From Escherichia phage LH01: a stretch of 64,000 nt of DNA. The stretch lies in sequence record PP434429, one strand, 5' to 3'. A model generated the notes under the pieces. The model ran no database searches. It was not told the origin of the DNA and worked only from the letters and a program-made list of their open reading frames with translations. The position numbers and the translations under genes are program-made. Shown here in pieces: positions 8,344 through 52,134 of this stretch (positions are counted from its first letter, which is position 1; the number at the start of each line of letters is the position of its first letter).

Positions 8344-8372
8344 ATTATACTCCAACCATCCTTGGTTGTACA
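8344..8372 (-). promoter_or_regulatory. promoter/stem-loop cassette, copy 1 (-35 TTGTACA, CAACCA/TGGTTG hairpin, -10 TATAAT)
   Basis: contains the 25-nt motif tatactccaaccatccttggttgta also present near 8903, 51088 and 52108. Confidence 0.5.
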
Positions 8373-8375
8373 ACA

Positions 8376-8870
8376 TTAATTAAGGATATTAACCACAGCA
8401 CTACGTGGAACTACACTAAAATCACCTGCATGAACAACGTTCAGAAGTTCAACACCGTCTTCAATCCATTGGTCAGTTACCCATCCATTTACTGGACCAG
8501 CGAATAGGCGTCGAATTGAAACATATTTACACAACAAATCAGTAGGCTCAATAGGCTTAATCAGAGTACCGTACATACAAGCGATATCCATATCAATACA
8601 GATATCTTTAACGGGTTCTACTTCTTCAATCAACAGTTCAAAGTCGGTGCTTGGAAGGGCGGTAGTAGAAATTGTACCATATGAATTTTTAATTTCTAAG
8701 AATAACCAAGGGCCTTCAACTTGTTTGATGAAGTTAACAATAGTGAAACTATTACCTTGAGTGGCACCTAAAATTTCACAAAACTTTTCATAAGCTCGCA
8801 CTGAAGCACCGTACCAGTTGATTTGTTTTTCATCTTTCAGGATGTAAGTAGCCGTGGTATTGATATTCAT
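8376..8870 (-). CDS. hypothetical protein, tandem paralog family (copy 3, divergent)
   Basis: start taken at internal ATG (MNINTTA) with RBS; C-terminal WVTDQWIEDGVELLNVVHAGDFSVVP resembles copies 1-2. Confidence 0.55.
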   Translation of the reverse strand: MNINTTATYILKDEKQINWYGASVRAYEKFCEILGATQGNSFTIVNFIKQVEGPWLFLEIKNSYGTISTTALPSTDFELLIEEVEPVKDICIDMDIACMYGTLIKPIEPTDLLCKYVSIRRLFAGPVNGWVTDQWIEDGVELLNVVHAGDFSVVPRSAVVNILN

Positions 8871-8900
8871 AATGTTTTCCTGTTTGGTTAAGATAGAAAG

Positions 8901-8930
8901 ATTATACTCCAACCATCCTTGGTTGTAAAC
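8901..8930 (-). promoter_or_regulatory. promoter/stem-loop cassette, copy 2 (-35 GTTTACA, hairpin, -10 TATAAT)
   Basis: same 25-nt core as 8346-8370, located between the dexA stop and the 8870 start. Confidence 0.5.
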
Positions 8931-8935
8931 TGGTT

Positions 8936-9613
8936 TTATCGCTGTTTTACACTTAACGGGTCAGGATTCTCAGGGACATCTTCAAGGCCAAGCGCATAAC
9001 GCTGAGCATATTTTAACATCAAAATATCTTTAGCACAATCATGAACACTATCATGGGCAATGAATCCTTTTAGCGTACCCATTGGTAACGGACACATACT
9101 TAATCCTCGTGTCAACGAGTAAGCTTCGATTGCCGTACGAATATCACGTTGAGCCCAGAATTTAACCGGTTCTAATTTATCAGTATCAATATCTGGTTCA
9201 AGAACACCTTCATCACGATAGAGGTCACGAATCAAATCGACCAAGATCGGGAAGTCAAAGCTCATACCACGGCACCACATCTGTGATTTCCATTGGTCAA
9301 CTTTATTAGCTCGACAATAATCTAAAAAGATTTTAATGCCTTCAAGCGTAGTGACATCGTCTTCAGACGGAGCCAGGTTTTTACGTGCTTCTGCAGATTG
9401 TTCTTTCCACCATTTCATAGTGGATTTAGCGAAAACTCGCTTCCCTTTCTGAGAAGCTAAATTAAATTTAATTCGCTTACCTCGTTGAACAAGTTCTTCG
9501 AATGATTCAACAATTTCAGGGTCCGAATTATATGCAATAACCGCAAGGTCAATAACAGCAGCTTTTGACGTATTGCCGAATGTTTCAAAATCTATAATAA
9601 CATCAGTGCTCAT
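8936..9613 (-). CDS. dexA: exonuclease A (DnaQ-like 3'-5' exonuclease)
   Basis: 225-aa ORF; N-terminal DFETFG exo I motif; size and position next to dda as in T4. Confidence 0.75.
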   Translation of the reverse strand: MSTDVIIDFETFGNTSKAAVIDLAVIAYNSDPEIVESFEELVQRGKRIKFNLASQKGKRVFAKSTMKWWKEQSAEARKNLAPSEDDVTTLEGIKIFLDYCRANKVDQWKSQMWCRGMSFDFPILVDLIRDLYRDEGVLEPDIDTDKLEPVKFWAQRDIRTAIEAYSLTRGLSMCPLPMGTLKGFIAHDSVHDCAKDILMLKYAQRYALGLEDVPENPDPLSVKQR

Positions 9614-9622
9614 AATTTTCTC

Positions 9623-10936
9623 TCAAATAAAATGGACGTCAAAACGACCACGAGTTGTGCCGACATATAATAACTGTTTAGCTAATTCTGAATCAGCATA
9701 ATGGATGCACGGTGTATAAACAAAGGCCGTGTCAACAGACATACCCTGAGCCTTATGGAAGGTTGATACTGGTAGTGCCTTCACCTTAGTGAACATACGT
9801 TTAGCATCCCAGAATTCACTCCATGGAGCTTTACCACCTTTATTCCAGAATTTGTATGTTTCTGCAGTCTTAGCCAAAAACAAATTGAATTTATAAAGCT
9901 CTTCTTCAGAAGAAATAACCTTTATATCTTCGCGGACGTATTCTTCATCATCGCCATATGTTTCTACTGTAAGATTCCAGTATCGTATCATATATTCGCC
10001 TGAAACACCACGTGCTTTAACAAATGTAGACGTTTCTACAGCATCTCGAATACGAACGAATTGCCCGTTATTGAAAAGCATTTCGGTCATATTTTTGCCA
10101 TCTAGCTTATATGTCTTAGTAAGTGGCTCTTGTAGAACAATGACTTCGTCTTTAATAAATGGCTTTTCTGTTTCAAAAAGTTTTCGGCGAATAATTGAAT
10201 TCAACTTGTCCACCGACTTATTTGTGAATGCCATCATTCGATTTTCGAAAAGGTCTTCAGGAGTTTTAACGATGTTAAAATAGTTCATCATATACGATTT
10301 AAGGTCTGTATATCCGTGAACACCGTGTCCATCAACTACTTTATCGTAAATCCATTTGCCATTACGAATATCAGTCGCAACATCAATAATTGGTGCATTG
10401 CTACGTTTAACTTCTGTAAGGTTGCATTGCACGAAGTCTTTGTGAGTGAAGAAAGGACTTAGATACGCAGTTGATTCGCCTGGGTCTACCGGTCGAATCT
10501 GGCATCGGTCGCCGATTCCAATTACTGTACACCATTTAGGGATACTAGCTAACATTATTTTAAACAGAGAACGGTCGCACATTGACGCTTCATCAAATAA
10601 CAGTACACGACACAAGGCTAAGTCGGGAACCTTTTTCTGTTCAAACAATACGTTTTCTTCGTATGTAGTTGGGTTGATTTTAAGAATGCTATGAATAGTC
10701 GATGCTTCTTGACCCGCAAGTTTGCTTAGAACCTTTTTAGCAGCATGTGTAGGGGCTGCTAAAATAATACCTGATTCTCCAGAAGAAATAAGGGCTTCAA
10801 CGATGAATCTAGTAAGGGTTGTTTTACCTGTACCAGCAGGCCCATTAATAGTTACGTGATGTTTCTTTTCTTTAATAGCTTTCATAACAACGTTGAAGGC
10901 GTTTTTCTGGCCTTCGGTCAAATCATCAAATGTCAT
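9623..10936 (-). CDS. dda: Dda DNA helicase (SF1B)
   Basis: 437-aa ORF; Walker A GPAGTGKTT, Walker B LLFDEASM; ATG overlaps the upstream stop (ATGA). Confidence 0.85.
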   Translation of the reverse strand: MTFDDLTEGQKNAFNVVMKAIKEKKHHVTINGPAGTGKTTLTRFIVEALISSGESGIILAAPTHAAKKVLSKLAGQEASTIHSILKINPTTYEENVLFEQKKVPDLALCRVLLFDEASMCDRSLFKIMLASIPKWCTVIGIGDRCQIRPVDPGESTAYLSPFFTHKDFVQCNLTEVKRSNAPIIDVATDIRNGKWIYDKVVDGHGVHGYTDLKSYMMNYFNIVKTPEDLFENRMMAFTNKSVDKLNSIIRRKLFETEKPFIKDEVIVLQEPLTKTYKLDGKNMTEMLFNNGQFVRIRDAVETSTFVKARGVSGEYMIRYWNLTVETYGDDEEYVREDIKVISSEEELYKFNLFLAKTAETYKFWNKGGKAPWSEFWDAKRMFTKVKALPVSTFHKAQGMSVDTAFVYTPCIHYADSELAKQLLYVGTTRGRFDVHFI

Positions 10937-11244
10937 CGTAAAGTCCCTGCAATTGGAATACTAACAATACGGCCTGTGTCCAGGATTCGTTGATACAATC
11001 TTTGCGTCTCCGCATCTAGTTTAACGTGTTTCATTTCAAGCTTATTAAACCAGAACTTACGCGGAGTTTCGACCATTCTTAGAACTCCCATTTTTAAATC
11101 TGTTTTATACTGTGTTTTCAAAGTATCGAAAACTTTATCTGCAATATCCTTTCTAAAAAATACTGCAGGACGATGCTCATCAAGTGGAACCGGGACAGTA
11201 AATCCTTCCATATCTCGATAAACTATTGCATATACATAAACCAT
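10933..11244 (-). CDS. hypothetical protein (dda.1 position)
   Basis: 103-aa ORF, ATG start; synteny only. Confidence 0.5.
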   Translation of the reverse strand: MVYVYAIVYRDMEGFTVPVPLDEHRPAVFFRKDIADKVFDTLKTQYKTDLKMGVLRMVETPRKFWFNKLEMKHVKLDAETQRLYQRILDTGRIVSIPIAGTLR

Positions 11245-11246
11245 AA

Positions 11247-11993
11247 TTAACCTTTAATCAGTTGGAATAATGATGCGCTAAGTGGTAAGCCACGTTTCAA
11301 TTTTAATTTACCAATGAAACCAATCTTTTCAAAACGTTGCAGACCTTGGATAACTTTATCATATGTATCGAAAAGCGATTCAGCGTCAGTTAATTTAGTT
11401 TTAGTTTTCCAGTCAGAGCCTTTAAGAAGAACGTTGAGTTTAGTAAGTTCATGGCCTTCTGCTTGATGTGAGCCATTAATGCGTGCTTTCAAAGCAACAA
11501 TTCTAAGTTTAGATTCGTTAGATAAAGGTTGATTTTTCATCATGTTCGCCATATGCTTAACACGATTTTCACGTTTTGCTCGGATTTTTAAAATAGTATC
11601 ATAAACCTTTTTGATTTGGGCCCATTTCTTCTCGTCGAGATTAAGTTTCTCTACTTTACGGACAGAAGGATTAGCGATACGTCTTGCAATGGCATCACGT
11701 TTCTCAATAAGTTCTTCTAATGTTAAATCAGAACGAGCCGTGTTATATTTTTTCTTAACTGGGATAACATTACCTTTAATGTAGCCTATATCGTTATTAA
11801 AACGTTCTAAGGATAATTTCTCACCTTCAACAGAGTTATTGAAAGATTCACCTGAGTAAGCGCAGACCTTTTGATCAAGAACGTTTTTAAGGTAATTAAA
11901 GTCTAAGTTAAAATCCTTAGAGCGTCTCTTCGCAGAAGCTCTAGTGTGGTCAAGACGACGATTGATTTTGTTAATTTTATTATTTGATAACAT
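11247..11993 (-). CDS. hypothetical basic protein (position of T4 srd)
   Basis: 248-aa ORF, ATG at 11993; Lys/Arg-rich; a CAYSGE...NDIGYIKGNV segment vaguely resembles HNH/AP2-type DNA-binding modules but lacks clear catalytic residues. Confidence 0.5.
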   Translation of the reverse strand: MLSNNKINKINRRLDHTRASAKRRSKDFNLDFNYLKNVLDQKVCAYSGESFNNSVEGEKLSLERFNNDIGYIKGNVIPVKKKYNTARSDLTLEELIEKRDAIARRIANPSVRKVEKLNLDEKKWAQIKKVYDTILKIRAKRENRVKHMANMMKNQPLSNESKLRIVALKARINGSHQAEGHELTKLNVLLKGSDWKTKTKLTDAESLFDTYDKVIQGLQRFEKIGFIGKLKLKRGLPLSASLFQLIKG

Positions 11994-12042
11994 AATATTT
12001 TCCTCTGTCTTACGGACGTTAGGTCATTTAGCTGATAGGCCT

Positions 12043-12070
12043 ATAATATCATGCCCTCAGGTAGTGTACA
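12043..12070 (-). promoter_or_regulatory. early-type promoter (-35 TGTACA, -10 TATTAT)
   Basis: minus-strand motif about 50 nt upstream of the 11993 ATG. Confidence 0.4.
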
Positions 12071-12145
12071 CTCTTTTTTCATAAAATGCTTTAATTTTTT
12101 ATGTGTTATAATGGTTCTGAGTTCCATCCGGTTATTCCAATCCAG

Positions 12146-12754
12146 TCAGTAACCGACAATAGACAGATTCCAGATTGTATAACGTCCATCTTGAATAATA
12201 GAATCTACACGCAGTGTAGTCCCTATAGGGAGCATAAATTCACATTCGTCAGATATAAGTCTAGCATTAGACCGTCTTGTCGCTTCAGGGAAAGCTCCAT
12301 TGAACTCACAAGATGGCGCAGCCAGAATCATGTTAAGCATATGTTCACGGAAGTTGAAAGCAAATGGTGCATCTTTGATGCAGAACATATTAAATGTTCC
12401 ATAAAAATTATATGAAGCGAAGTTACGTGCTACACCAAACACCGGACTAAAGCTCATTACTCTGTCAAATTTAATAATACTACCAATGCCTTTATCATCG
12501 AGTGTGGCCATAGTTTTCTTAGAGATTCCACGATACATTGTCTCAGGAACTGAAGACGTCCAATTTCTACGAACGATTGAACTTAACTCCTGTTGAATAC
12601 AGTCTGGCTTGTTTTCCATACACTGCCAAAGGATGCTTTGTTCATTATCGTTGAATTGACTATCAATTTCGTACTGCAATTCATCTTGATATTCGGGGCA
12701 TTGAGCACGGCGAACCATTTCCTCAATTTCACATTCATTATACGGCATAAACAT
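12146..12754 (-). CDS. ModA/ModB-family ADP-ribosyltransferase
   Basis: 202-aa ORF; R-S-E triad pattern: MYRG (Arg), SFSPVFG (S-x-S), DECEFMLP (E-x-E); AGGAG RBS. Confidence 0.7.
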   Translation of the reverse strand: MFMPYNECEIEEMVRRAQCPEYQDELQYEIDSQFNDNEQSILWQCMENKPDCIQQELSSIVRRNWTSSVPETMYRGISKKTMATLDDKGIGSIIKFDRVMSFSPVFGVARNFASYNFYGTFNMFCIKDAPFAFNFREHMLNMILAAPSCEFNGAFPEATRRSNARLISDECEFMLPIGTTLRVDSIIQDGRYTIWNLSIVGY

Positions 12755-12782
12755 TTAGGTTTCTCCTGTGGTTGATAAAGGT

Positions 12783-12811
12783 ATAGTATCATCGTCGGTA
12801 GAGTTTGTACA
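12783..12811 (-). promoter_or_regulatory. early-type promoter (-35 TGTACA, -10 TACTAT)
   Basis: TGTACA, 17 nt, TACTAT in the 57-nt gap between the two ART genes. Confidence 0.4.
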
Positions 12812-13393
12812 CTAAAAATTCAACATTTTTAAATGAATGATTTTGTATAATCGAGATAAAGGGTCATATTCTAAGTCTTCAATTTCCACAATCTCAAATC
12901 GAGAGATGCCTGAGACCATGTACTCTTGTTCAGATTCAATCATATCTAGGACGTCAACACGCGTTTCTTCCATAACATGCTTAGGATTCTTTCCGGCGAG
13001 TACAATGTTAACCATGTTTTGGTAGTAATCAAAAATGAATGGAGCATTCCTGAGACTAAGAATAGTGTACGTCTGATATTCCCATCTCCCAGAGAATTGA
13101 CGAGCTGTACTGAAATCAGTTGTGAACGATGTTACTCGTCCAGGAGACCAATGACATCCAACAGAAAGAAGGGAAAGACGTTCTACTTCTTCTGGAGTTA
13201 CACCACGGTAGAGTTCTACTGGTACTGCAGAAGTCATATGCTTACGAACAAGATGGTCTAATTCATAGTGGAAATCCGGGTCTTCCTTAGAATCAGTGCA
13301 AGCCCAGAGAATGTTTTGTTCTTGGCGGGTGAATTTGCTATCAATCAGATTTGTTAGGTATTCGCGTTCTTGAAGTTCAGATTGACATGTCAT
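12812..13393 (-). CDS. ModA/ModB-family ADP-ribosyltransferase (second copy)
   Basis: 193-aa ORF; LYRGV, SFTTDFSTA, ESEQEYMVSG (R-S-EXE); GGAGG RBS before ATG 13393. Confidence 0.7.
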   Translation of the reverse strand: MTCQSELQEREYLTNLIDSKFTRQEQNILWACTDSKEDPDFHYELDHLVRKHMTSAVPVELYRGVTPEEVERLSLLSVGCHWSPGRVTSFTTDFSTARQFSGRWEYQTYTILSLRNAPFIFDYYQNMVNIVLAGKNPKHVMEETRVDVLDMIESEQEYMVSGISRFEIVEIEDLEYDPLSRLYKIIHLKMLNF

Positions 13394-13420
13394 GATAGAC
13401 CTCCATTTAAAGATAAGCCT

Positions 13421-13449
13421 ATCATAACACGAGAGGAGGGAATGTAAAC
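13421..13449 (-). promoter_or_regulatory. early-type promoter (-35 GTTTAC, -10 TATGAT)
   Basis: GTTTAC, 17 nt, TATGAT about 28 nt upstream of ATG 13393. Confidence 0.4.
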
Positions 13450-13609
13450 TACTTTTTAAGCTTTCCTACTAAAGGACCATCAGGACCGGGTTGTTCTAAC
13501 ATGAATAAAGATGCTTTAAAAAGCAATGTCAACCCTTTCACCATTCGATACCATGTCTCAAAGTCTTTTTCCTTGATTTCTAGTAAGAATTTCTCTTTAA
13601 ATTTCTCTT

Positions 13610-13798
13610 TCATTTCCAAGGACTCCATGGTGGAGGGTCGTCATAATAAGAGGCTAGGTCTTTCAGGACTTCTAATGGTAAACTAAAACCGTGACGTTGT
13701 ATAATACTATCAATTTCATCAACAAGCTCGCCACGTTGTTCTTTAGGAGCCTTGACTTCAGGCTCATCAAACATACTCATCAAGTCCATATTATTCAC
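13610..13798 (-). CDS. hypothetical small acidic protein
   Basis: 62-aa ORF from the track; no motif. Confidence 0.3.
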   Translation of the reverse strand: MNNMDLMSMFDEPEVKAPKEQRGELVDEIDSIIQRHGFSLPLEVLKDLASYYDDPPPWSPWK

Positions 13799-14255
13799 CG
13801 AGATAAAAACTAGCCGGTTCAGAGAATGTTTCTAGCGCTACACCTTTTGTCTTAAAAAATTTCCAAATAGCTCGTTGCAAATGGACTAAATCTGCTAATG
13901 TTGTAATAAAGTATTTCTTGGCAAAATACTTATGGTCCCGCTTTTCAAACAGGTCTAAACGCTTTTCAGGATTCACATAAACAGCATTTTCTGTAGATTC
14001 GTACCCTAAATCCTTTATGCCTTCTTCAAGACTAAACGGAGAATTTTTAGAACGAGTAATAGCTCCAACTCGCTCTACACGAATTTTGTAACCTTTAGGA
14101 ATCTGCAATTTGCAGAATTCTTCTACGATATATTGTGGATTATTTAGACTTTTGTTAATGAGAATAGCTATTTCTAGTGGAGTCTTATCTTCTACTGGTA
14201 TATGTTTAAATGACTTGGCTTCAAGCAAATACATTTTAAATAGCATAGCATCCAT
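13791..14255 (-). CDS. hypothetical protein
   Basis: 154-aa ORF from the track; no motif recognised. Confidence 0.45.
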   Translation of the reverse strand: MDAMLFKMYLLEAKSFKHIPVEDKTPLEIAILINKSLNNPQYIVEEFCKLQIPKGYKIRVERVGAITRSKNSPFSLEEGIKDLGYESTENAVYVNPEKRLDLFEKRDHKYFAKKYFITTLADLVHLQRAIWKFFKTKGVALETFSEPASFYLGE

Positions 14256-14461
14256 TATAATTTCCTCGATGGTTCACCCATATAAAGTTTTACAATACGT
14301 TCGCCTTCATCTTCGACGAGCTTTTCTTCATGTTTCTGGAATTCTTTAGCCATATTCTCTTCAAGAACATCCAGCCAATCTTCTGGACCGACACCATCGT
14401 CCCAGCTTTTAAACCATTTAACTATCTTGTTCATTCGCAGCTCCCTGAGCTTGAACCACAA
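14255..14461 (-). CDS. hypothetical small protein
   Basis: 68-aa ORF; start overlaps the upstream gene. Confidence 0.35.
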   Translation of the reverse strand: MWFKLRELRMNKIVKWFKSWDDGVGPEDWLDVLEENMAKEFQKHEEKLVEDEGERIVKLYMGEPSRKL

Positions 14462-14619
14462 TCAGAATAACTTGACCCGGAATCACCAGGCCAAGACGAT
14501 ACGTATGAATGATTATAACTTGAAGAGCTTGAAGCAGACTTAGGACGAACAACTTCTTCCATCATGCCGTCACCAATGTATTCCCAACTTTTTTCGTGTG
14601 TATCAGGAATAGGCATCAT
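14431..14619 (-). CDS. hypothetical Ser-rich small protein
   Basis: internal ATG pair (MMPIPD) preceded by GAAGG; the longer track ORF overlaps its neighbour in another frame. Confidence 0.3.
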   Translation of the reverse strand: MMPIPDTHEKSWEYIGDGMMEEVVRPKSASSSSSYNHSYVSSWPGDSGSSYSDCGSSSGSCE

Positions 14620-14632
14620 ACCTTCGCCTGGT

Positions 14633-14860
14633 TTAACAGCAAATAACTTCTTCAGTATCGTAAGCATTAATTGTTCCTCGAACAAAACGAACACCACCAT
14701 CATCCCAACGGATTTCGGCATTAAATTTGACGTCTTCACCATCCATCATGAATGAGTGTACGACTACATCATCGTAATATCCAAGACCGTATTTCAACGA
14801 AACTTCTTGAGCAATCAAAGCACCTAATGTGTTATTAGGTTTAATCCAACGATTTAACAT
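14633..14860 (-). CDS. hypothetical small protein
   Basis: internal ATG (MLNRWIKP) with GAGGAG RBS; the upstream extension of the track ORF looks non-coding. Confidence 0.35.
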   Translation of the reverse strand: MLNRWIKPNNTLGALIAQEVSLKYGLGYYDDVVVHSFMMDGEDVKFNAEIRWDDGGVRFVRGTINAYDTEEVICC

Positions 14861-14922
14861 ATTGTTCTCCTCTTGAGTAAGTAAGAATATCTTAACACAG
14901 TTTTTAGTGGTTGTAAACTGTA

Positions 14923-14952
14923 GAAACAAAAAAAGGAATCCCGAAGGATTCC
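14923..14952 (-). terminator. intrinsic terminator, GGAAUCC(UUCG)GGAUUCC hairpin plus U-tract
   Basis: perfect 7-bp stem with UUCG loop about 10 nt after the soc stop, followed by a U7 run on the transcript. Confidence 0.6.
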
Positions 14953-14961
14953 TTAAATTAT

Positions 14962-15198
14962 TTAACCACTTACTGGTGTAGGGGTAAACATTGCAGCGTT
15001 CTTAGTTTTCCAGTCAGCTGCATCAGAAACTACAGTAGAATAAGCTGCCTTTTCTGATGGAAAGATTTGGTAATGAGAATCTGCAATCCGATGTTCGTTT
15101 GAATAAATCTCAAACGGCACAGAAACTTCCATACCTTTAACTTCTTTACCTTCACCAGCAGGATGCGTAAAGGTTTTGATGTTTACATAACCACCCAT
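14962..15198 (-). CDS. soc: small outer capsid protein Soc
   Basis: 78-aa ORF; GYVNIKTF...HYQIFPSEKAAYSTV matches the Soc family as I recall it; AGGAG RBS; late promoter upstream. Confidence 0.8.
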   Translation of the reverse strand: MGGYVNIKTFTHPAGEGKEVKGMEVSVPFEIYSNEHRIADSHYQIFPSEKAAYSTVVSDAADWKTKNAAMFTPTPVSG

Positions 15199-15200
15199 AA

Positions 15201-15425
15201 TTAACTCCTTTGTTGTTTAATTACAGGTGTATTTATAATGAATTTCTTCGGGACAATAAAATATCCGAATTTAGCTAATATAACAACACCACCGTTAATT
15301 ATTACCGGAGAATAATCATCTGGAGTATTAAATTTCCAGTGGAGTCTAGTATTATATCCATCAGAGCCGAATGCTTTATTAGCCGGTCTCCCGGCTTTTT
15401 GCCATGCATAAAAATCAAGTTTCAT
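15201..15425 (-). CDS. hypothetical small protein
   Basis: start at internal ATG (MKLDFYAWQ); the longer track ORF 15201..15539 overlaps a coupled small ORF in another frame. Confidence 0.35.
   Translation of the reverse strand: MKLDFYAWQKAGRPANKAFGSDGYNTRLHWKFNTPDDYSPVIINGGVVILAKFGYFIVPKKFIINTPVIKQQRS
15230..15237 (-). promoter_or_regulatory. late promoter TATAAATA upstream of soc
   Basis: exact TATAAATA on the minus strand about 30 nt upstream of the soc ATG. Confidence 0.55.
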
Positions 15426-15588
15426 TTGCAACCCAATCAACCATATGTAGATGGTCTGATAATTGACTAACATGCTGAAGCTGATTAGACAGGAGTTTAC
15501 AAATAAGCTCACTGTTATCATTTTTAAATAGTTGGTCAATACGTTTCTTATGAGCTTTCTTAAGCTGACGTTTATTTAAACGAGCCAT
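15415..15588 (-). CDS. hypothetical small basic protein
   Basis: 57-aa ORF (MARLNKRQLKKAHKK...) below the track threshold; its ATG overlaps the stop of gene 56 (TAATG). Confidence 0.35.
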   Translation of the reverse strand: MARLNKRQLKKAHKKRIDQLFKNDNSELICKLLSNQLQHVSQLSDHLHMVDWVANET

Positions 15589-16109
15589 TAATAACCTCGG
15601 TCTTGACGTGCGAAATTTTCAGCATTTTTCAGGTAATAAAGTTTAAAGATTTCTTCTGCTGTAAGACCAAGACCTTGGAACATGTTCAGAACGAAATGGA
15701 GAATATCAATCATTTCAAACTTAATTTCCAGTTGGTCTTCAGGAGACAGTTCATCGATACGACGATTTCGATATTCAGCATGTTGTGCTTTCCATGGCTT
15801 CCATACAGAGCTAGCGGCTTTTTCACCATTGCTCATACCACCAAGTGAAGTCAGCAGTTCACGGAATTCATCATCAATATAATCTTTCTGATTACGCAGC
15901 CAATCAACAACATCACCAGCAGTAGCCAATTCATCAGGATGTTTGTTATGTTCAGGCTTGTCATTTGCCAGACGAACTTGTAAAGATTTCTGCATATCAA
16001 GCATTACCTGCAGTGGGTCTTTATCTTCGTGAATCAGAGCATTAAAATAAGCTTCTTCTGCTTTATCAACACCAGAAATAAGTTGTGAACATTCGTTAAA
16101 GTGTGCCAT
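15588..16109 (-). CDS. 56: dCTP pyrophosphatase (MazG-like)
   Basis: start at ATG for MAHFNECSQL with AAAGGA RBS; MazG-like helical NTP-PPase pattern; position adjacent to gene 61. Confidence 0.75.
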   Translation of the reverse strand: MAHFNECSQLISGVDKAEEAYFNALIHEDKDPLQVMLDMQKSLQVRLANDKPEHNKHPDELATAGDVVDWLRNQKDYIDDEFRELLTSLGGMSNGEKAASSVWKPWKAQHAEYRNRRIDELSPEDQLEIKFEMIDILHFVLNMFQGLGLTAEEIFKLYYLKNAENFARQDRGY

Positions 16110-20562: not shown

Positions 20563-20588
20563 TTTGTTCTCCAGTAGTTGATAGGTCT

Positions 20589-20617
20589 ATAATAACACAA
20601 CTACTGGAGAAGTAAAC
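20589..20617 (-). promoter_or_regulatory. early-type promoter (-35 GTTTAC, -10 TATTAT)
   Basis: minus-strand motif about 27 nt upstream of ATG 20562. Confidence 0.4.
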
Positions 20618-44725: not shown

Positions 44726-44727
44726 AA

Positions 44728-44943
44728 TTAAGCCTTTTTATCAAGAACAGAATTCAGTTTGTTAGTAATTTTATCCAGACGCTCATTGAACTCATTAGAA
44801 GATAAGCCCTTTTCTGGAGAAATTAAACTAATCACGAAAAATACACCAGTAAAAGGAATAAGAAAAATAGCTCCAACTGCCATAAACAGAAAGAATGTTA
44901 CAGTTGTAAGAAAATCAGCTAAACCTTTACGAAATTTATACAT
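44728..44943 (-). CDS. small membrane protein
   Basis: 71-aa ORF with two hydrophobic helices. Confidence 0.4.
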   Translation of the reverse strand: MYKFRKGLADFLTTVTFFLFMAVGAIFLIPFTGVFFVISLISPEKGLSSNEFNERLDKITNKLNSVLDKKA

Positions 44944-45050
44944 ATTTACCCTTAATTAACCAAGCGTTGATAAGCAAACCATATTGCGAATAAAATTCTG
45001 GACCAAAATGAAAAATCATATCATTTATAGTATCCATAATGTAATTCAAT

Positions 45051-45521
45051 TTAATCATGTTTCCACACCCCATCGGTATTTGACCAAAGTCGCTGATTAT
45101 CTGATCCTCGCCACAACTTTTTGGTCGGAAGATTTTTCTCATACTTCCCATCAATAATAACATCAACATATTTAAGCATTTCTAGCTGTTTAATATCTTC
45201 AAACTTATATCCTGTCCACAACCAAATGCTTTTATTGGGATAAAGATTTTTAATAGTTTGAACTACAGAGCGAATAACATCTCGGTTATCAGGATAGAGA
45301 GGGTCTCCTCCGGTTATAGTTAATCCTTCTATATAATCATTATTCAAGCATTCAATTAATTGTTCTAGTGTCTCTCCAGTGAATGGAATACCATTTCTAG
45401 CGTTCCATGTTGATTTATTATAACACCCTTCACATTTATGCAAACAACCTGTAACGAAAAGAACGACCCTGCAACCAGGGCCATTCACAAAATCGCAAGG
45501 ATAAAATCTATCATAATTCAT
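45051..45521 (-). CDS. nrdG: anaerobic ribonucleotide reductase activating protein (radical SAM)
   Basis: 156-aa ORF; CDFVNGPGCR and CxxxCxxC (CLHKCEGC); ATG overlaps the nrdD stop (ATGA). Confidence 0.85.
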   Translation of the reverse strand: MNYDRFYPCDFVNGPGCRVVLFVTGCLHKCEGCYNKSTWNARNGIPFTGETLEQLIECLNNDYIEGLTITGGDPLYPDNRDVIRSVVQTIKNLYPNKSIWLWTGYKFEDIKQLEMLKYVDVIIDGKYEKNLPTKKLWRGSDNQRLWSNTDGVWKHD

Positions 45522-47335
45522 TGGTGTTTAACTCTATGCATGATTTCTTTATTTTTACCGAGATTAAATCCGCGTTCGTTCGGATTTCCCAAATAACCGC
45601 ATGTTCTTCTTATGGTGTTCATCTTTTTAGGATCAGTTTCTCCGCAAACTGAACAAACAAATCCGTTTTCAGTAGGAGTCATTTCATGAGTACTTCCACA
45701 TGTAAAACATTTATCTACTGGCATATTAACACCAAAATAATCTAAATGTTGTGCAGCATAATCCCAGACAGCCTCAAGTCCCTTTAAATTGTTTTTCATA
45801 TCTGGAAGTTCAACATAAGAAATGTGACCACCTGTCGCAATGAAATGATATGGCGCTTCACGAGAAATCTTTTCAAACGGAGTAATATTTTCTTCTACTG
45901 AAACGTGGAAACTATTAGTGTACCAGCCTTTATCGGTAACATCTTTTACGCTTCCATATTTTTCTGTATCAAGTTTACAGAAACGATAACACAAGTTTTC
46001 AGCAGGAGTAGAATATAAACTAAAAGCAAATCCAGTTCTTTCGGTCCACTGTTTAAGATGAGCATTCATTTTAGTTAAAATTTCTTGCCCAATATCACGA
46101 CCGACAAGAATATTCAATTCGTGAATACCAATGTATCCCAAAGACACTGAACTTCTACCGTTTTTAAATAACTCAATTATGTCGTCATCAGGTTTAAGAC
46201 GGGCCCCGAATGCACCTTCTTGGTAAAGAATAGGAGCAACAGTCGCTTTAACTCCTTTTAAGGAACTAATTCTACACATCAAAGCTTCAAAACACAGGTC
46301 CATTCGTTCGTTAAATAGCTCAACAAATTTCTGTTCATTGAACTGTGTTCCAATATAAGAATCTAACGCAATACGAGGAAGATTCAGTGTTACAACACCA
46401 AGATTATTACGTCCATCAAGAATTTCATTACCAGTCGAATCTTTCCATACGCTCAAGAAACTACGGCAACCCATCGGAGAAACAGGAACTGAAGAACCGG
46501 TAATAGCTTTATTATTCTTAACCGAAATAATGTCAGGATACATTCTTTTGCTTGCACATTCTAACGCAAGTTGTTTAATATCATAGTTTGGATCATCTTT
46601 ATAAAGATTAACACCTTCTTCAACAAACATAACAAGTTTAGGAAAAATAGGAGTTATCCCATCACGTCCAAGACCTTTAATACGATTTTTCAGAATTGCT
46701 TTCTGAATCATTCGTTCAGTCCAGTCAGTTCCCGTACCAAATGTAATTGTTACAAAAGGCGTTTGCCCGTTTGAACTAAAGAGAGTATTTACTTCATATT
46801 CGTAAGCTTGGAATGCGTCATAGACATCTTTTTCTGTTTTAGATTGAGCATAATTCAACGCATCAGTGATTTGCCATTTTTCTGCATCCTCAATATGTTT
46901 TGCATAGGTGCGTTTAACATAAGGAGAAAGTACTTTATCTACATTAGCAAAAGTCGTTCCGCCGTATTGATGGGAAGCAACTTGTGCAGTAATTTGTGCC
47001 ATAATTGCAGTAGCAACACCAATCGATTTAGGCGTTTCAATTTGAGCATTGCCTAATTTAAATCCGTTCTCAAGCATCCCCTTTAAATCGACTAAACAGC
47101 AATTAGTAAATGGAAGAGCAGGGGAATAATCAATATCGTGGAAATGGATAATTCCGCTTTCATGTGCTTTCATAATAAAAGACGGGACCATATTTTTGGC
47201 AATGTGTTTAGACACAATACCGGCCATAAGGTCCCGTTGAGTTGGAAAAACACGAGAATCTTTATTAGCATTCTCGTTTAAAAGGTCTTTATTAGTTTTA
47301 TGAATCAATCCTTCAATTTCTTTTTCAATTGTCAT
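45518..47335 (-). CDS. nrdD: anaerobic ribonucleoside-triphosphate reductase (class III), uninterrupted
   Basis: 605-aa ORF; C-terminal zinc ribbon CFTCGS...CSVCGE and glycyl-radical segment RRTCGYLG. Confidence 0.9.
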   Translation of the reverse strand: MTIEKEIEGLIHKTNKDLLNENANKDSRVFPTQRDLMAGIVSKHIAKNMVPSFIMKAHESGIIHFHDIDYSPALPFTNCCLVDLKGMLENGFKLGNAQIETPKSIGVATAIMAQITAQVASHQYGGTTFANVDKVLSPYVKRTYAKHIEDAEKWQITDALNYAQSKTEKDVYDAFQAYEYEVNTLFSSNGQTPFVTITFGTGTDWTERMIQKAILKNRIKGLGRDGITPIFPKLVMFVEEGVNLYKDDPNYDIKQLALECASKRMYPDIISVKNNKAITGSSVPVSPMGCRSFLSVWKDSTGNEILDGRNNLGVVTLNLPRIALDSYIGTQFNEQKFVELFNERMDLCFEALMCRISSLKGVKATVAPILYQEGAFGARLKPDDDIIELFKNGRSSVSLGYIGIHELNILVGRDIGQEILTKMNAHLKQWTERTGFAFSLYSTPAENLCYRFCKLDTEKYGSVKDVTDKGWYTNSFHVSVEENITPFEKISREAPYHFIATGGHISYVELPDMKNNLKGLEAVWDYAAQHLDYFGVNMPVDKCFTCGSTHEMTPTENGFVCSVCGETDPKKMNTIRRTCGYLGNPNERGFNLGKNKEIMHRVKHQ

Positions 47336-47805
47336 TTTAAACTCTTTTTAAGCTGCTTTTTGAATGAAGCTATTAATTGTGTTTTAGTATCAGATTTATT
47401 ATATTCAAATCCTCTTTGAAGCATCTCAGCCATCATTTCCTCTTTACCTAGTCTTGAGAACTCTTTAGTTTTGTCTGGAACAAAATTAGGATGGATATTA
47501 TTATCAGAATAATCTTGTTTCAAATAAGCAAGAAGAGCTTCAAGCCATTCGAGGTAATCAACGTTTTGACCTTTAAGACCAGAACGGTTGAACTTATGCT
47601 TCATTTGACCTTCTGCTGCATTGCACAGATTACAGAGTAATCCACGAACTCTACCGGCTTTTGGCCCGTTTAATTCATGGTCGTGGTCAAGATGGTTACC
47701 TTGAACATCAGGGTCTAATTCACGGTGGCAAATAGGACACTTACCGTTCTGTGCATCATAAAATTTTTGTTTTTCTTCTTTGTATTTTGCGCCTGATAAT
47801 AACAT
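47332..47805 (-). CDS. 49: endonuclease VII (Holliday junction resolvase)
   Basis: 157-aa ORF; zinc/His-Me finger region CPICHREL...HLDHDH...CNLCN; late promoter upstream. Confidence 0.85.
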   Translation of the reverse strand: MLLSGAKYKEEKQKFYDAQNGKCPICHRELDPDVQGNHLDHDHELNGPKAGRVRGLLCNLCNAAEGQMKHKFNRSGLKGQNVDYLEWLEALLAYLKQDYSDNNIHPNFVPDKTKEFSRLGKEEMMAEMLQRGFEYNKSDTKTQLIASFKKQLKKSLK

Positions 47806-47834
47806 GATAAACCCTTACCTTAAATAGATAAGGG

Positions 47835-47842
47835 TATTTATA
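47835..47842 (-). promoter_or_regulatory. late promoter TATAAATA upstream of gene 49
   Basis: exact TATAAATA about 30 nt upstream of ATG 47805. Confidence 0.5.
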
Positions 47843-47844
47843 AT

Positions 47845-48024
47845 TTAGTAAACGTTATAAAAGTCTCGATGGAAACGCTTATACTGACGAATCATTCTTT
47901 TAGTAGGACGAGTTTCTGAAATAATTGAAGTCCTCATATTTGGATTGTTTGGGGCCCCAATCATAATAAATTTCCAAGATTTTTGACCGTTTGTTCTTTC
48001 GCCAAAAAATAATGCAGTTTTCAT
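47845..48024 (-). CDS. small basic protein, RPTKR paralog family (copy 1)
   Basis: 59-aa ORF below the track threshold; ...TRPTKRMIRQYKRFHRDFYNVY C-terminus resembles 48449..48619. Confidence 0.35.
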   Translation of the reverse strand: MKTALFFGERTNGQKSWKFIMIGAPNNPNMRTSIISETRPTKRMIRQYKRFHRDFYNVY

Positions 48025-48033
48025 AATAAGCCC

Positions 48034-48447
48034 TTAACTTAAACGTCTTTCTAAATATTCAATGTATTCCGCTGCGGCTTGCATCAGATTACCTTCATAA
48101 CCGTCATTATTTTCTTGACCGGCTAATTTAGCTAAAGCATAAGAAATACGTTCACCTTCGAATTCGCCAAGTCCACCATCACAAACTACCTGGTCAATTT
48201 CTTCGAGTTCATCTATTGAATGGGATTCCCAGAAGCACCAAAGAGAAGTATCACGGTCATAGATGCAAAGTTTCTCACCTGTGTTCAACATCACTTCGAT
48301 AATGCCATGGTCGCCATAACCATCTTCGGTAGTAGTACCAATTACCTTGATGATTGTTCCTTTCTTTAATTCAGGAAACTTGACTTGTAGTTCTTCATCT
48401 TCTTTAACAATCTTGAACCATTTACCGCGAGTTTCAGAAATATTCAT
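48034..48447 (-). CDS. hypothetical acidic protein
   Basis: start at internal ATG (MNISETRG); the upstream part of the track ORF is a hydrophobic read-through of the intergenic region. Confidence 0.45.
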   Translation of the reverse strand: MNISETRGKWFKIVKEDEELQVKFPELKKGTIIKVIGTTTEDGYGDHGIIEVMLNTGEKLCIYDRDTSLWCFWESHSIDELEEIDQVVCDGGLGEFEGERISYALAKLAGQENNDGYEGNLMQAAAEYIEYLERRLS

Positions 48448-48448
48448 A

Positions 48449-48619
48449 TCAATATTCTCTATAAAAGTTACGATGAGAACGTTTAGCTTTGCGAAGCTGA
48501 CGTTTAGTAGGACGAACTGTAAATGGTTGTCCAGAGAAAAAATTAGGATCGGTTTTAATAAGCAAATACCAATCATGCTTGTCATTTTTTAATAAACGGT
48601 ACAATAATTTAACTTGCAT
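48449..48619 (-). CDS. small basic protein, RPTKR paralog family (copy 2)
   Basis: start at internal ATG (MQVKLLY) with GGAAGAG RBS; ...TVRPTKRQLRKAKRSHRNFYREY C-terminus. Confidence 0.35.
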   Translation of the reverse strand: MQVKLLYRLLKNDKHDWYLLIKTDPNFFSGQPFTVRPTKRQLRKAKRSHRNFYREY

Positions 48620-48920
48620 AATAATCTCTTCCCATTTCCATATCAATTAATTCATTTATTGAAGGTTCATCATAACACGTTTCTTCGTCGTTGTAAACTG
48701 TTTCAACGTCTGGCTCGACAGTCTCCCATCGAGCGACATACCATGGCTTAACCGCGGAGCTTATTGAGCTCTTCATAATCAACCCAGGATTCTAGCCCAG
48801 ATGGCAAATCAGATTCAATTTCCCAAAGAAGCTCTTCAATTTTCTGAAGACGATCTAATTCTTCAACAGGAATAGTAACCATTGATGGAGCTCTTGCTGC
48901 ACTAATATCGTAAATCATAT

Positions 48921-49136
48921 TTACCCCAGTTTAACCATGCAATCGCCGTATTTCCATTTAGAAATAGACTTTTCGCCATTAGAATAATAAACTTCGAGTT
49001 TAGCACGATTATTTTTAATTTGAATAACCTTGGATGTCATCAAAGTTCCATACCCATAGTAAACTGCAACTTCATCACCTACATATACCGCGTTTCCACG
49101 GTAGTCGTGGATATAATCAGTTCCTTCAAGCATCAT
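48921..49136 (-). CDS. hypothetical small protein
   Basis: 71-aa ORF from the track. Confidence 0.4.
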   Translation of the reverse strand: MMLEGTDYIHDYRGNAVYVGDEVAVYYGYGTLMTSKVIQIKNNRAKLEVYYSNGEKSISKWKYGDCMVKLG

Positions 49137-49396
49137 TTAAAATATTCTCGCAGTTGATCAAATCCACCAATGTGACTTCCGTCAGGAGCAAACACTTGAG
49201 GCATAGTCAATCCAACTTGTGATTCGCGTCCAAGCTTAACAAGAAGCTCAGTAATTTTCTCATCGTCGAACACACCTTTTTCTGGCATAACATTAATGAA
49301 TTCGAATGGCTGTTTCTTAACAGTCAGCAATCGTTTCGCATTATCACAATAAATGCATTTATGAATAGTAGAGTCATACCCGTACACTTTAAACAT
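49133..49396 (-). CDS. nrdC: thioredoxin/glutaredoxin-like protein
   Basis: start at ATG for MFKVYGYDSTIHKCIYCDNAKRL (CxxC active site); about 87 aa. Confidence 0.75.
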   Translation of the reverse strand: MFKVYGYDSTIHKCIYCDNAKRLLTVKKQPFEFINVMPEKGVFDDEKITELLVKLGRESQVGLTMPQVFAPDGSHIGGFDQLREYFK

Positions 49397-49802
49397 TATT
49401 TTTCCTTTCATCGATTAAATATGCAACGCCAAATACAATACATGTAATAAAACCTGTGATACAGATAGAAACCAACAACACTGTACCAAAGAACCAAATC
49501 AGGTTATCTTTAGTAGTTTGTTTTATATCCATCTCACGAATTTCTATAGCTATAGTATCACCTTTATTCAGAAGCGTATAAAACGACGGTGATACATGCC
49601 TGTCAAAAACTCGTCCTTGCTCATCTTTATAGATGGCAATAAATTCTAATTTAGAATATTTTCCTGTAGATTGACCTGAGATTAATTCCACTACCTCCAC
49701 AGGAATTACTTTAGTTTCCATGTAAGTATTTTGACTGTTCCAAATGAATGGAATAATAGCAAAAACTAAAGCTGCGATAAAACAACGAAGGCTATATCTC
49801 AT
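49389..49802 (-). CDS. membrane protein
   Basis: 137-aa ORF with N- and C-terminal hydrophobic helices. Confidence 0.45.
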   Translation of the reverse strand: MRYSLRCFIAALVFAIIPFIWNSQNTYMETKVIPVEVVELISGQSTGKYSKLEFIAIYKDEQGRVFDRHVSPSFYTLLNKGDTIAIEIREMDIKQTTKDNLIWFFGTVLLVSICITGFITCIVFGVAYLIDERKNNV

Positions 49803-50107
49803 TATAATGTTCTCTCAAATTTGTGGAAGCATTTACGGCATTTCAATTTCAAGTTATCACTGGTCCAGTTAACCAGTTGGACTTGGATAGTTCCACATTC
49901 CGGACATGGATGTTTTGCTGCCGATTTGGCAGCATTTTCACGTCGTTCAACCATTTTCATTATTTCGTTCCATGCTGGAGGAACGAACTCTTCTTCACCA
50001 TGAATTTTATCTCGCTGAACAAATTCAATCTTTGAACTATCATCAATAAACTTAACCAAGCCATGATTAGTGCTCATATCAATATCCTCTAGAAGACGTA
50101 GGTTCAT
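49802..50107 (-). CDS. zinc-ribbon protein
   Basis: 101-aa ORF; CPECG...CRKC pairs near the C-terminus. Confidence 0.45.
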   Translation of the reverse strand: MNLRLLEDIDMSTNHGLVKFIDDSSKIEFVQRDKIHGEEEFVPPAWNEIMKMVERRENAAKSAAKHPCPECGTIQVQLVNWTSDNLKLKCRKCFHKFERTL

Positions 50108-51057
50108 TATAACACCTCAATGGCATTTCGTAAACCGTCCGCTTTCGCATTCAGAGCTTTTAACGATTTAGTTTGTTCTGCAATCTGGGCTTCGACTTCT
50201 TTCAGACGAGATTTGAGGTACTCACGTTCTTCAGCCATGATATCAACCTTTTCTGCTTTAGGTTCTTTAATAAGCTTAGGTTTATACGTATTAGGGTTCT
50301 TCAGCTTAATTCGGGTACGAGAACTGTATAACATTGAACCGTTATCTTCGGATTCGTCGAACGTTTCAACAACATCCATAGTCTCTAACAATGTAATAAG
50401 TTTATAAGACAATGAACGAACGGTTTTGTTGTGCTTATTAATTTCTTCGGCTTTCATAGTACCGAGATTACGTGAGTAGTAATAAGGAACCTGGATATCA
50501 ATTGATAATGATGCGTTACCATTACCTGTTGGTTTGAATACTGCAGTAACCCAATCTTTAACATGAACTTTATTTGTACGACCATCACCGCCAGTGAATA
50601 ATTTACGAGAATGTTTAAAAAGCATATTCACTTGGTTATTGAATTCACAAGCAAATTTATCAGCAAATTTAGTTTCAGGAATGGTAGATAACCAATCAGC
50701 CAAATGAGCCTTTTTAACATCATTAACAATAGTGAATTCAACCAAATCGGTTTTAGATGTCACAGATTTAATAAAGCTCGGCTTCATAAAGTTTTTAATA
50801 TTATCGCGAGCTACAGTAGAAGATAATAAACGAGAACGTTTGAACCATTGAAGCAGTGTCCCTAATGAATGAGAATACGCATTCTGAGTATCTTTACAGA
50901 TATGATTTTCTTGGCCTGTGTATGTACCAAAATCGCGAAGAATACCACTTACTACATCTCGGTGTGGAACATCAAATCCTAGTGCACCAGAAGCACGTTG
51001 GGCATGAACGTTAGCGATAAGACCTGCAAAGTATTCAATGTAATGTGAACGTGTCAT
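50107..51057 (-). CDS. hypothetical protein with C-terminal coiled coil
   Basis: 316-aa ORF; heptad-rich C-terminus; preceded by promoter/stem-loop cassette copy 3. Confidence 0.55.
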   Translation of the reverse strand: MTRSHYIEYFAGLIANVHAQRASGALGFDVPHRDVVSGILRDFGTYTGQENHICKDTQNAYSHSLGTLLQWFKRSRLLSSTVARDNIKNFMKPSFIKSVTSKTDLVEFTIVNDVKKAHLADWLSTIPETKFADKFACEFNNQVNMLFKHSRKLFTGGDGRTNKVHVKDWVTAVFKPTGNGNASLSIDIQVPYYYSRNLGTMKAEEINKHNKTVRSLSYKLITLLETMDVVETFDESEDNGSMLYSSRTRIKLKNPNTYKPKLIKEPKAEKVDIMAEEREYLKSRLKEVEAQIAEQTKSLKALNAKADGLRNAIEVL

Positions 51058-51085
51058 AATATTTTCCTCTCGTTAAGATAGATTC

Positions 51086-51115
51086 ATTATACTCCAACCA
51101 TCCTTGGTTGTAAAC
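51086..51115 (-). promoter_or_regulatory. promoter/stem-loop cassette, copy 3
   Basis: identical 25-nt core tatactccaaccatccttggttgta; -35 TTTACA, -10 TATAAT. Confidence 0.5.
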
Positions 51116-51119
51116 TATT

Positions 51120-52079
51120 TTATGATTTTAATGCATTCATTGCGTTAAAAAGTTTAGAATACTGCAACTGGAGATTCGTTACAACACTTTGAGCATCACG
51201 AAGCTTAGCTTGTGCTTTGTCAAGTTCAACAGACAGTTGGTCCATAGTGGCCTTGATTTGATTGTAATGGTAATCTTCGGCAGGAAGAAGGTCATTAGAA
51301 ACATTTAGTTTTACTGCCGACAGTTTGCACACATTTGGCAAACCTTTAAACATTGATTTACCCGAAGTAGAATATGCACCTAGAACTTCAGCATTGCCAA
51401 TTGGGGTTGCAGTAATTGACGCTTCGAACGTTGCATTTTCCTTTTTAAGATTTTGATAGTATTCAGAGTCTTTGTGCCACCATGGCGCAGGAACCTTTTT
51501 ACCAATAGATACACGAGCCTGGATAGCGATATGGCCCTTATTCTTGATAGGGTCGATAATATTAAGCTCACGAGAATAAATTGCTTTAATCTGGTGGATA
51601 TTATCACCTAAAACTTCCAACGCTTGGTGGAATACACGAGCAACGTTATCATTCTTAGGTTTATACGTAAGAGTGAACTCGTTCTCACTGATAACCATGA
51701 TTTCTAACTTATCGTAAGTATATTTCAAATGTTTCATGTTAATTGCTTGAGGACGAATACGAGAAGCAATGGCCATCAGATTGTTAAGGTTATTCCGGAA
51801 CTGCTTAGCGAAATATTGACCTTCACCGCCAATACAAAAATTACGAAGTTTCTGTTTGGCCAATAAACGGCTGAACTCACCATTTTTAATGAACTCTTTA
51901 ACGGGTGTGTTAGTAACGCATTCAAATTGGGTAAACATACGAGAAGTAATCCCATAATACGAACAGACTTCCTCAATCTCTTCAGGAGTCTTTACAGGCA
52001 TACGGATAGGATTAGGTCCTGGAGTATATGCGTTCGAGGTAAATTCTTTGATAAGTTCTCTACGTGTAATAAAAGCCAT
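51120..52079 (-). CDS. hypothetical protein with C-terminal coiled coil
   Basis: 319-aa ORF; preceded by cassette copy 4. Confidence 0.55.
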   Translation of the reverse strand: MAFITRRELIKEFTSNAYTPGPNPIRMPVKTPEEIEEVCSYYGITSRMFTQFECVTNTPVKEFIKNGEFSRLLAKQKLRNFCIGGEGQYFAKQFRNNLNNLMAIASRIRPQAINMKHLKYTYDKLEIMVISENEFTLTYKPKNDNVARVFHQALEVLGDNIHQIKAIYSRELNIIDPIKNKGHIAIQARVSIGKKVPAPWWHKDSEYYQNLKKENATFEASITATPIGNAEVLGAYSTSGKSMFKGLPNVCKLSAVKLNVSNDLLPAEDYHYNQIKATMDQLSVELDKAQAKLRDAQSVVTNLQLQYSKLFNAMNALKS

Positions 52080-52105
52080 TTTATATTCCTCATGTTGAAA
52101 AATTT

Positions 52106-52134
52106 ATTATACTCCAACCATCCTTGGTTGTACA
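52106..52134 (-). promoter_or_regulatory. promoter/stem-loop cassette, copy 4
   Basis: identical 25-nt core; -35 TGTACA, -10 TATAAT. Confidence 0.5.

Follow-up and report, generated by a model that had tools for sequence, protein, structure and literature searches.

Probable promoter-early stem-loop cassettes at two plastic loci of the RB69-like Escherichia phage LH01

In the genome of Escherichia phage LH01 (PP434429) one 25-nt sequence recurs unchanged upstream of four genes at two loci 42 kb apart, which raises the question of what this element is and how it came to precede different genes. The initial annotation of the window (the whole 64,000-nt stretch of this record analyzed here) had described it as a mobile regulatory cassette, similar to the promoter-early stem-loop (PeSL) elements of T4-type phages, that could mediate shuffling of gene modules. 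We consider it highly probable that the four copies are PeSL-type cassettes, i.e. that they form a sequence subclass of T4-type early promoters which carry a stem-loop in the spacer and at which genes are shuffled. Cassettes of this class have already been described in other T4-type phages, and the corresponding RB69 sites have already been predicted to be early promoters. The literature searched contained no report of deletion junctions bounded by the cassette at two loci, or of covariation in the stem.

The 25-mer TATACTCCAACCATCCTTGGTTGTA has four exact plus-strand matches in the window, at positions 8346, 8903, 51088 and 52108, each upstream of a gene start, just as first described. No further site was found in the window at up to three mismatches, and 100 shuffles yielded no matches. 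Read on the minus strand, identity over all four copies extends to a 27-nt core, TACAACCAAGGATGGTTGGAGTATAAT (8344-8370, 8901-8927, 51086-51112 and 52106-52132). Depending on the pair of copies compared, exact identity covers 27-31 nt, and 48-59 of 90 positions are identical over the segment from -20 to +70. All four copies lie on the coding (minus) strand, in intergenic gaps of 55-65 nt that separate a stop codon from the next start, and a Shine-Dalgarno (SD) sequence and an ATG follow 31-36 nt downstream of each. Every copy inspected in related phages is likewise intergenic, so that the motif was not seen inside coding sequence in any of them.

Mosigvirus (RB69-like, T4-type) coliphages match both window regions at 97-98% identity. 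When 50,697 phage records were searched by BLAST with the 34-nt cassette, matches were confined to T-even-type coliphages, with two to four places per genome in Mosigvirus, four in the closest relatives and a single diverged copy in Dhakavirus. Since the closest relatives have four places per genome, the genome-wide count also comes to four, with every copy inside the window. No Rfam covariance model matched over any copy at E≤1, and a literature search with the core string CCAAGGATGG returned only unrelated primer sequences. The feature annotated as a “possible StbAB binding site” in phage ATK47 spans 11 nt within nrdC.6 and is unconnected with the cassette.

Each copy has a promoter layout, composed of a -35 hexamer TTTACA (copies A and D) or TGTACA (copies B and C), a 17-nt spacer and the -10 hexamer TATAAT. 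The minus-strand promoter had initially been given a -35-like TTGTAC(A), a CAACCA/TGGTTG hairpin in the spacer and a TATAAT box. Copy A (8901-8929; -35 at 8929-8924, hairpin at 8925-8910, -10 at 8906-8901) is located between the dexA stop codon (8936) and the start of a motB.1 homologue (8870). Copy B (8344-8372; -35 at 8372-8367, hairpin at 8368-8353, -10 at 8349-8344) separates the motB.1 stop codon (8376) from the motB start (8313). At the second locus, the -35 hexamer of copy C (52106-52134; hairpin at 52130-52115, -10 at 52111-52106) abuts the nrdC.6 stop codon, and a gene encoding a 319-amino acid (aa) DUF7235 protein follows downstream, while copy D (51086-51114; hairpin at 51110-51095, -10 at 51091-51086) precedes an nrdC.3 homologue.

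The four copies are the top σ70 matches of their regions, agreeing with the consensus at 11 or 10 of 12 positions. The A+T content of the 20 nt upstream of the -35 hexamer is 65-85%, compared with 63% for the whole window, copy A being only marginally enriched. The orthologous sites of RB69 are early promoters predicted with a hidden Markov model, i.e. Pe:8947, Pe:8387, Pe:51019 and Pe:52042 for copies A, B, D and C, respectively (Nolan et al. 2006, PMC1524935, Additional file 3), and three of these four sites have the identical core. These entries describe promoters only, and the searched text of that paper mentions neither the hairpin, nor the repeat nature of the sites, nor a link to insertions and deletions. 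From the sequence and the RB69 predictions we infer that the four copies are strong early promoters of the host σ70 type.

Gene names for the four downstream genes were taken from the RB69 annotation. Copy A is followed by the motB.1 homologue (8376-8870, minus strand; 164 aa, matching the C-terminal part of the Pfam family motB) and copy B by the motB homologue (7858-8313, minus strand; 151 aa, Pfam motB). The 319-aa DUF7235 gene behind copy C (51120-52079, minus strand; assigned with Pfam) occupies the slot annotated in RB69 as nrdC.5, and the nrdC.3 homologue behind copy D (50107-51057, minus strand) encodes 316 aa. Two of the copies were originally said to flank a paralog array at 7429-8870. 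This does not hold: the first gene of the array has one copy in front of it, and the other copy separates the first gene from the second; the third motB-family gene (7429-7848), an extra motB paralogue, has no cassette copy. Neither could the label of tandem paralogs be applied to the locus at 50-53 kb, since the three proteins of ~320 aa encoded there show no mutual similarity in BLASTP and are thus not detectable paralogues. A sub-threshold Rfam match to Y_RNA at 8631-8721 (minus strand), within the motB.1 coding sequence (26.6 bits against a gathering threshold of 38, E 0.005), is probably due to chance.

The cassettes form two pairs of repeats in direct orientation, 557 bp (A/B) and 1020 bp (C/D) apart. 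As the 27-31-nt core is repeated in this orientation and at these distances, a unit consisting of one gene and one cassette could be lost by crossover, and relatives of LH01 were found to differ in exactly this way. In phage p000v, nrdC.6 is directly followed by nrdC.3, and the single cassette between them combines the upstream flank of copy C with the downstream flank of copy D, so that p000v lacks one unit of 1020 bp, made up of the 319-aa gene and one cassette. Metagenome contig L048 has the same chimeric C/D junction and also lacks the 319-aa gene. In a BLAST search with the junction sequence, 21 of 153 Mosigvirus records contained it uninterrupted, in agreement with the presence of the 319-aa gene in 132 records and of the Mosigvirus-type nrdC.3 in 152.

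The motB locus shows the same pattern. Metagenome contig L042 runs from the end of dexA and the upstream flank of copy A straight into the downstream flank of copy B, followed by motB, and the 557-bp unit composed of motB.1 and one cassette is absent. The A/B junction without motB.1 is present in one piece in at least six isolates (PTK, VIPECOMC06, ST2, S143_2, AV115 and AV118). Loss of motB.1 is biologically plausible, because a T4 delta-motB.1 mutant has the burst size and latent period of the wild type (PMC12152347). All four combinations of presence and absence occur, i.e. both genes (the window), motB.1 only (p000v), the 319-aa gene only (PTK, ST2) and neither (AV115, AV118). At greater evolutionary distance the gene that follows may be a different one: in Dhakavirus IME08 the cassette precedes an nrdC.4 orthologue and nrdC.3 is absent. 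T4 has a diverged version of the cassette before nrdC.3. The anticipated variation of flanking genes among relatives is thus borne out at both loci. The term “mobile” is appropriate for deletion and replacement by recombination at the repeats; transposition is not shown.

Two further observations point to exchange between copies. The RB69 leader that follows copy D (45950-46005 of the RB69 stretch, beginning ctttctatctta) is that of copy A, which is located 42 kb away, and it is unlike the leader of copy D in the window (51058-51114, beginning gaatctatctta); this suggests that the RB69 leader may have arisen by patch exchange between the two loci. Around copy B, the window and p000v differ at 13 of 290 nt, and four of these differences lie inside the 27-nt core, a clustering that may be a sign of sequence exchange between copies.

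We propose that σ70 RNA polymerase would start transcription ~7 nt past TATAAT, each cassette serving one small dispensable early gene. Comparison of the relatives shows that the phage recombination system can cross over inside the repeated 27-31-nt core, with loss of one “gene + cassette” unit and a single functional chimeric cassette left behind, and that over longer periods of time the same cassette comes to precede different genes.

An alternative explanation is that these are no more than ordinary conserved promoters, which arose by tandem duplication together with their genes and were kept by purifying selection, the insertions and deletions of relatives ending there by chance. The proteins offer some ground for it: paralogy links motB, the motB-like gene and motB.1, at least over the C-terminal parts, and duplication of these genes could thus have included copies A and B; in addition, nrdC.3 and nrdC.4 have an N-terminal MTRxxYI motif in common. 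However, the coding identity of the motB paralogues does not exceed 43%, compared with 100% in the cassette core. No BLASTP similarity was detected between the genes behind C and D, or between those behind A/B and C/D, and the two loci are 42 kb apart. Exact cassette-chimera deletion junctions are found at two independent loci, and the clustering of strain substitutions in the core of copy B is consistent with patch conversion. We therefore regard this explanation as quite improbable, and return to PeSL-type cassettes as the preferred one.

The spacer of all four copies contains a hairpin, CAACCA-AGGA-TGGTTG, with a 6-bp stem and a 4-nt loop, positioned 4-12 nt after the upstream stop codon. 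Because it lies just past this stop codon, the hairpin would be present on read-through transcripts of the upstream gene and absent from transcripts initiated at the promoter of the cassette itself.

To compare stems, variants were collected by IMG/VR pattern scans with free stem positions and from the sequences of relatives. The stem positions that read CAA/TTG in the window copies are CAT/ATG in copy B of RB69 and p000v (CATCCA/TGGATG, a compensated change) and in the Dhakavirus copy, CTT/AGG in VR7-like phages and CAG/TTG in contig L033 (each with one G-U pair), and AAG/CTC upstream of T4 nrdC.3. Other forms of the stem are TATACCA/TGGTATA (IME08 nrdC.6), CCACA/TGTGG (Tequatrovirus nrdC.4) and ACCCA/CGGGT (Mosigvirus nrdC.6, including window positions 53172-53185). 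Among 15 distinct variants, 91% of the cells are paired and four of the six pairs have changes on both sides; at one stem position AU, UA, GC, CG and GU pairs are all present. The covariation score of 0.483, compared with 0.096 in shuffles, was reached in none of 500 shuffles, and it did not exceed 0.105 when the partner was slid. The stem-free IMG/VR pattern served as an internal control: the 22 matches adjoining genes of the T4-type motB/nrdC regions pair at five or six of the six positions, while 38 of the 40 matches elsewhere pair at three or fewer (the other two at four and five). As shown by this covariation, the hairpin is maintained by selection for base-pairing. The AGGA loop and the inner CCA/TGG pairs are nearly invariant over three genera, and it is the outer stem that covaries. 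A T-to-C change at the loop-closing pair (AGGAC) recurs on several backgrounds, in 5 of the 15 variants. The wobble pairs point both ways as to the strand that folds: two G-U pairs on the sense strand stand against the recurrent A-C, which is a G-T pair on the opposite strand.

PeSLs were defined in phages RB49 and phi1 as intergenic elements that comprise an A+T-rich tract, a strong σ70 promoter, a stem-loop, and the SD sequence and start codon of the next gene (Arbiol et al. 2010, PMC2839356). The stem-loop has five placements, mostly between -35 and -10 or over the -10 hexamer, and the elements are concentrated in hyperplastic regions, where they act as crossover points for the loss or gain of flanked open reading frames (ORFs); the corresponding mini-circles were demonstrated (PMC2839356). 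The concept was later extended to T4/PST (TTTACW-N17-TAYWAT) and KVP40/nt-1 (Comeau et al. 2014, PMC4122927). The LH01 cassettes resemble these elements in being intergenic, spanning the interval between the upstream stop codon and the downstream ATG, and in preceding small non-essential ORFs in plastic regions. They also share the A+T-rich upstream tract, a -35/N17/-10 arrangement close to that of T4/PST, a stem-loop at the commonest placement, and the loss in close relatives of the gene between two cassettes, with a chimeric cassette left. The likeness to PeSLs claimed in the initial annotation is therefore upheld in terms of the published definition (PMC2839356, PMC4122927), except for its terminator half, which finds no support. 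Several features set the LH01 elements apart. Their stem is short and A/T-rich (CAACCA/TGGTTG), unlike GGGG...CCCC in RB49 and AGNA...TCNT in PST, and nothing in it resembles a terminator. Four copies, distributed over two loci separated by 42 kb, have the same core; exact identity covers 27-31 nt, which is shorter than the ~100 bp of conservation quoted for RB49, and shuffling is known here from sequence comparison, whereas in RB49/phi1 mini-circles were seen.

Several points weigh against assigning the four copies to this class. The hairpin is weak (-6.9 kcal/mol, with z from -0.3 to -1.8 relative to shuffles), and the terminator function shown for the GC-rich PeSLs of RB49 cannot be assumed for it. 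Covariation was scored on few variants, which are related to one another and were in part collected with the loop and the -10 hexamer fixed in the pattern. Promoter activity is predicted from the sequence match and the RB69 entries (PMC1524935). An exact repeat of 27-31 nt is short for efficient homologous recombination. Finally, the junctions would fit deletion as well as insertion, and recurrent events as well as one event spread by crosses.

With regard to the function of the hairpin, two roles were rejected. An intrinsic terminator is not indicated, as only three of the six pairs are G-C, the stem is followed by GAGUAUAAU with no U-tract, and a terminator scan gave no match at the four sites. 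Sequestration of the ribosome-binding site (RBS) by the cassette hairpin was dismissed because the cassette contains no anti-SD stretch. Our best guess is that the hairpin acts on the read-through RNA of the upstream gene, as a weak attenuator, a 3′-end protector or a processing signal, and not as a classical terminator.

RegB cuts GG*AG/U in early intergenic regions; its consensus is GGAGRAYARAA, with an unpaired GGA and a constrained fourth base, and RB69 carries a regB gene (PMC3014915). A signal on read-through transcripts, in the form of an attenuator, a stem protecting the 3′ end and/or a site for the RegB endoribonuclease, is compatible with the PeSL assignment, and we put it forward tentatively. 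It is pairing and not base identity that is conserved, with five pair types at one position. Two variants (L033 and the VR7-like one) remain paired only through a G-U pair on the sense strand, and the location of the hairpin 4-12 nt past the upstream stop codon is suitable for such a role. Two places are candidate RegB sites: the loop GGA, which has its fourth base paired, and the GGAG that precedes UAUAAU immediately 3′ of the stem. Against a signal of this kind are the weakness of the stem and its lack of a U-tract, as well as the AGGAC loop of 5 of the 15 variants, which destroys GGAU and creates an A-C mismatch (a G-T wobble on the opposite strand). As regards RegB in particular, the nrdC.4 and nrdC.6 relatives have no downstream GGAG, and GGAGUAUAAU fits only four of the seven positions after GGAG in the extended consensus.

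The near invariance of CCA...TGG and of the AGGA centre, together with a position between -35 and -10 that is typical for repressor operators, could also point to an operator in double-stranded DNA, at which a dimeric phage or host regulator shuts the promoters off. The element is moreover shared by an early-type and a MotA-box-type promoter. However, the bases of the half-sites vary freely provided that they remain complementary (five pair types, including G-T), which is a better fit to a folded single strand. No candidate regulator was identified, and the cytosine modification of T4-type phages would crowd the major groove. An operator thus seems improbable.

Integron attC/attI sites offer an analogy drawn by the PeSL authors themselves, in that small excisable gene units lie between structured repeats. 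The difference is that no integrase is involved here, that the repeats are promoters in direct orientation, and that plain homologous recombination suffices. A site-specific recombination site of the attC kind, with its hairpin read by a dedicated recombinase or a structure-specific nuclease, would account for the covarying stem, the invariant loop and the deletion end-points inside the cassette, and was raised as a possibility by the PeSL authors (PMC2839356). Neither locus has an associated recombinase, and homologous exchange within 27-31 nt of identity explains the junctions equally well, as the crossovers are not localisable to the hairpin. We consider such a site highly improbable.

A further possibility is that the hairpin is no passive part of the promoter and forms a specific structured signal in RNA or single-stranded DNA which is read by a phage factor and couples RNA processing or targeted recombination to the cassettes. 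It derives from the invariance of the AGGA loop and the CCA/TGG inner stem alongside covariation of the outer stem in Mosigvirus, Dhakavirus and Tequatrovirus, at early-type and MotA-type promoters alike. RegB/S1 or an LSm-like protein of the GoF/MotB.1 family would be candidate factors. Taken together, signal and factor make a doubtful proposition.

Middle promoters of T4-type phages have a MotA box with the consensus (a/t)(a/t)(a/t)TGCTTtA, 12±1 bp upstream of the -10 hexamer (PMC2988021). At this place the four copies have (C/T)AGTTTA or TGTTGTA/GATGTA, which agree with at most ~4 of 7 core positions, so they were rejected as MotA-dependent middle promoters. Of the window elements tested, only a divergent fifth relative of the cassette, located upstream of nrdC.6 (53166-53194, minus strand), fits the MotA-box placement. 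It contains the MotA-box-like sequence AAACGCTTTA at 53194-53185 and TATAAT at 53171-53166, with a 13-nt spacer in which a hairpin of the same kind, A-CCC-AAGGAC-GGG-T (53185-53172), presents the AAGGA loop. The element is conserved in RB69, p000v, ATK47 and G53, and IME08 has the TATACCA/TGGTATA version. A middle-promoter version of the PeSL concept has been named PmSL (PMC4122927). Judged by its sequence, the fifth element looks like a candidate middle promoter with stem-loop, i.e. a PmSL-like counterpart of the cassette.

These findings extend the PeSL model of gene shuffling to RB69-like coliphages, a group with many isolates obtained as candidates for phage therapy. The natural evidence is unusually clean, with two loci, exact chimeric junctions and four gene combinations among ~150 sequenced isolates, and the stem-loop itself is shown by covariation to be selected even though it is no classical terminator. 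For annotation and engineering, the cassettes indicate where dispensable early genes can safely be cut and pasted; through repeat-mediated deletion, engineered inserts could also be lost there.

Some observations concern the neighbouring genes. The nrdC.3 and nrdC.4 proteins share the N-terminal motif MTRxxYIxxF and show no overall similarity in BLAST (window 50107-51057; contig L095, 441-1442; contig L024, 3554-4567). This could reflect very distant paralogy, or cassette exchanges reaching into the first codons. The gene order is dexA, motB.2, motB.1, motB in T4, and dexA, motB.1, motB, extra motB paralogue, motB.2 in the window (6845-8870). The motB.2 gene, which has a different promoter of its own, thus occupies different places in T4 and Mosigvirus, and this GTTTACTTC...CCTC promoter is retained in both T4 and LH01; promoter and gene therefore seem to have moved as one unit.

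In T4, RBS-sequestering hairpins with the promoter in the loop are found at genes such as e, soc and 49. The hairpin of the four-copy cassette forms entirely inside the spacer, without pairing to the SD sequence downstream, whereas other early promoters of the window fit this type, their spacers being complementary to the SD sequence downstream. Early promoters of the GTTTAC type (minus strand; -35 at 7423, 13448, 20616, 42885, 53775, 57940 and 58389) have stem-loops that span the -10 hexamer and are much stronger than that of the cassette (-18 to -23 kcal/mol, z from -2.3 to -4.4). In several of them the spacer pairs with the downstream SD sequence, e.g. CTCCTC/GAGGAG at 7423 and a 14-bp stem at 20616. 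Such pairing would mask the RBS on read-through transcripts and leave it free on those that begin at the promoter.

A second repeated promoter/leader cassette was noticed at 20569-20597 and 53728-53756 (minus strand), where 29 identical nt, TGTTATTATAGACCTATCAACTACTGGAG, recur 33 kb apart and cover the -10 hexamer and leader of two otherwise different early promoters. In the motB promoter region of T4 (~660-760 of the T4 stretch, minus strand), a G+C-rich hairpin GGGACC...GGTCCC lies over the first TATAAT, and a second box, GGAGTATAAA, which resembles the one before T4 nrdC.3, follows, as if two promoter cassettes had been fused.

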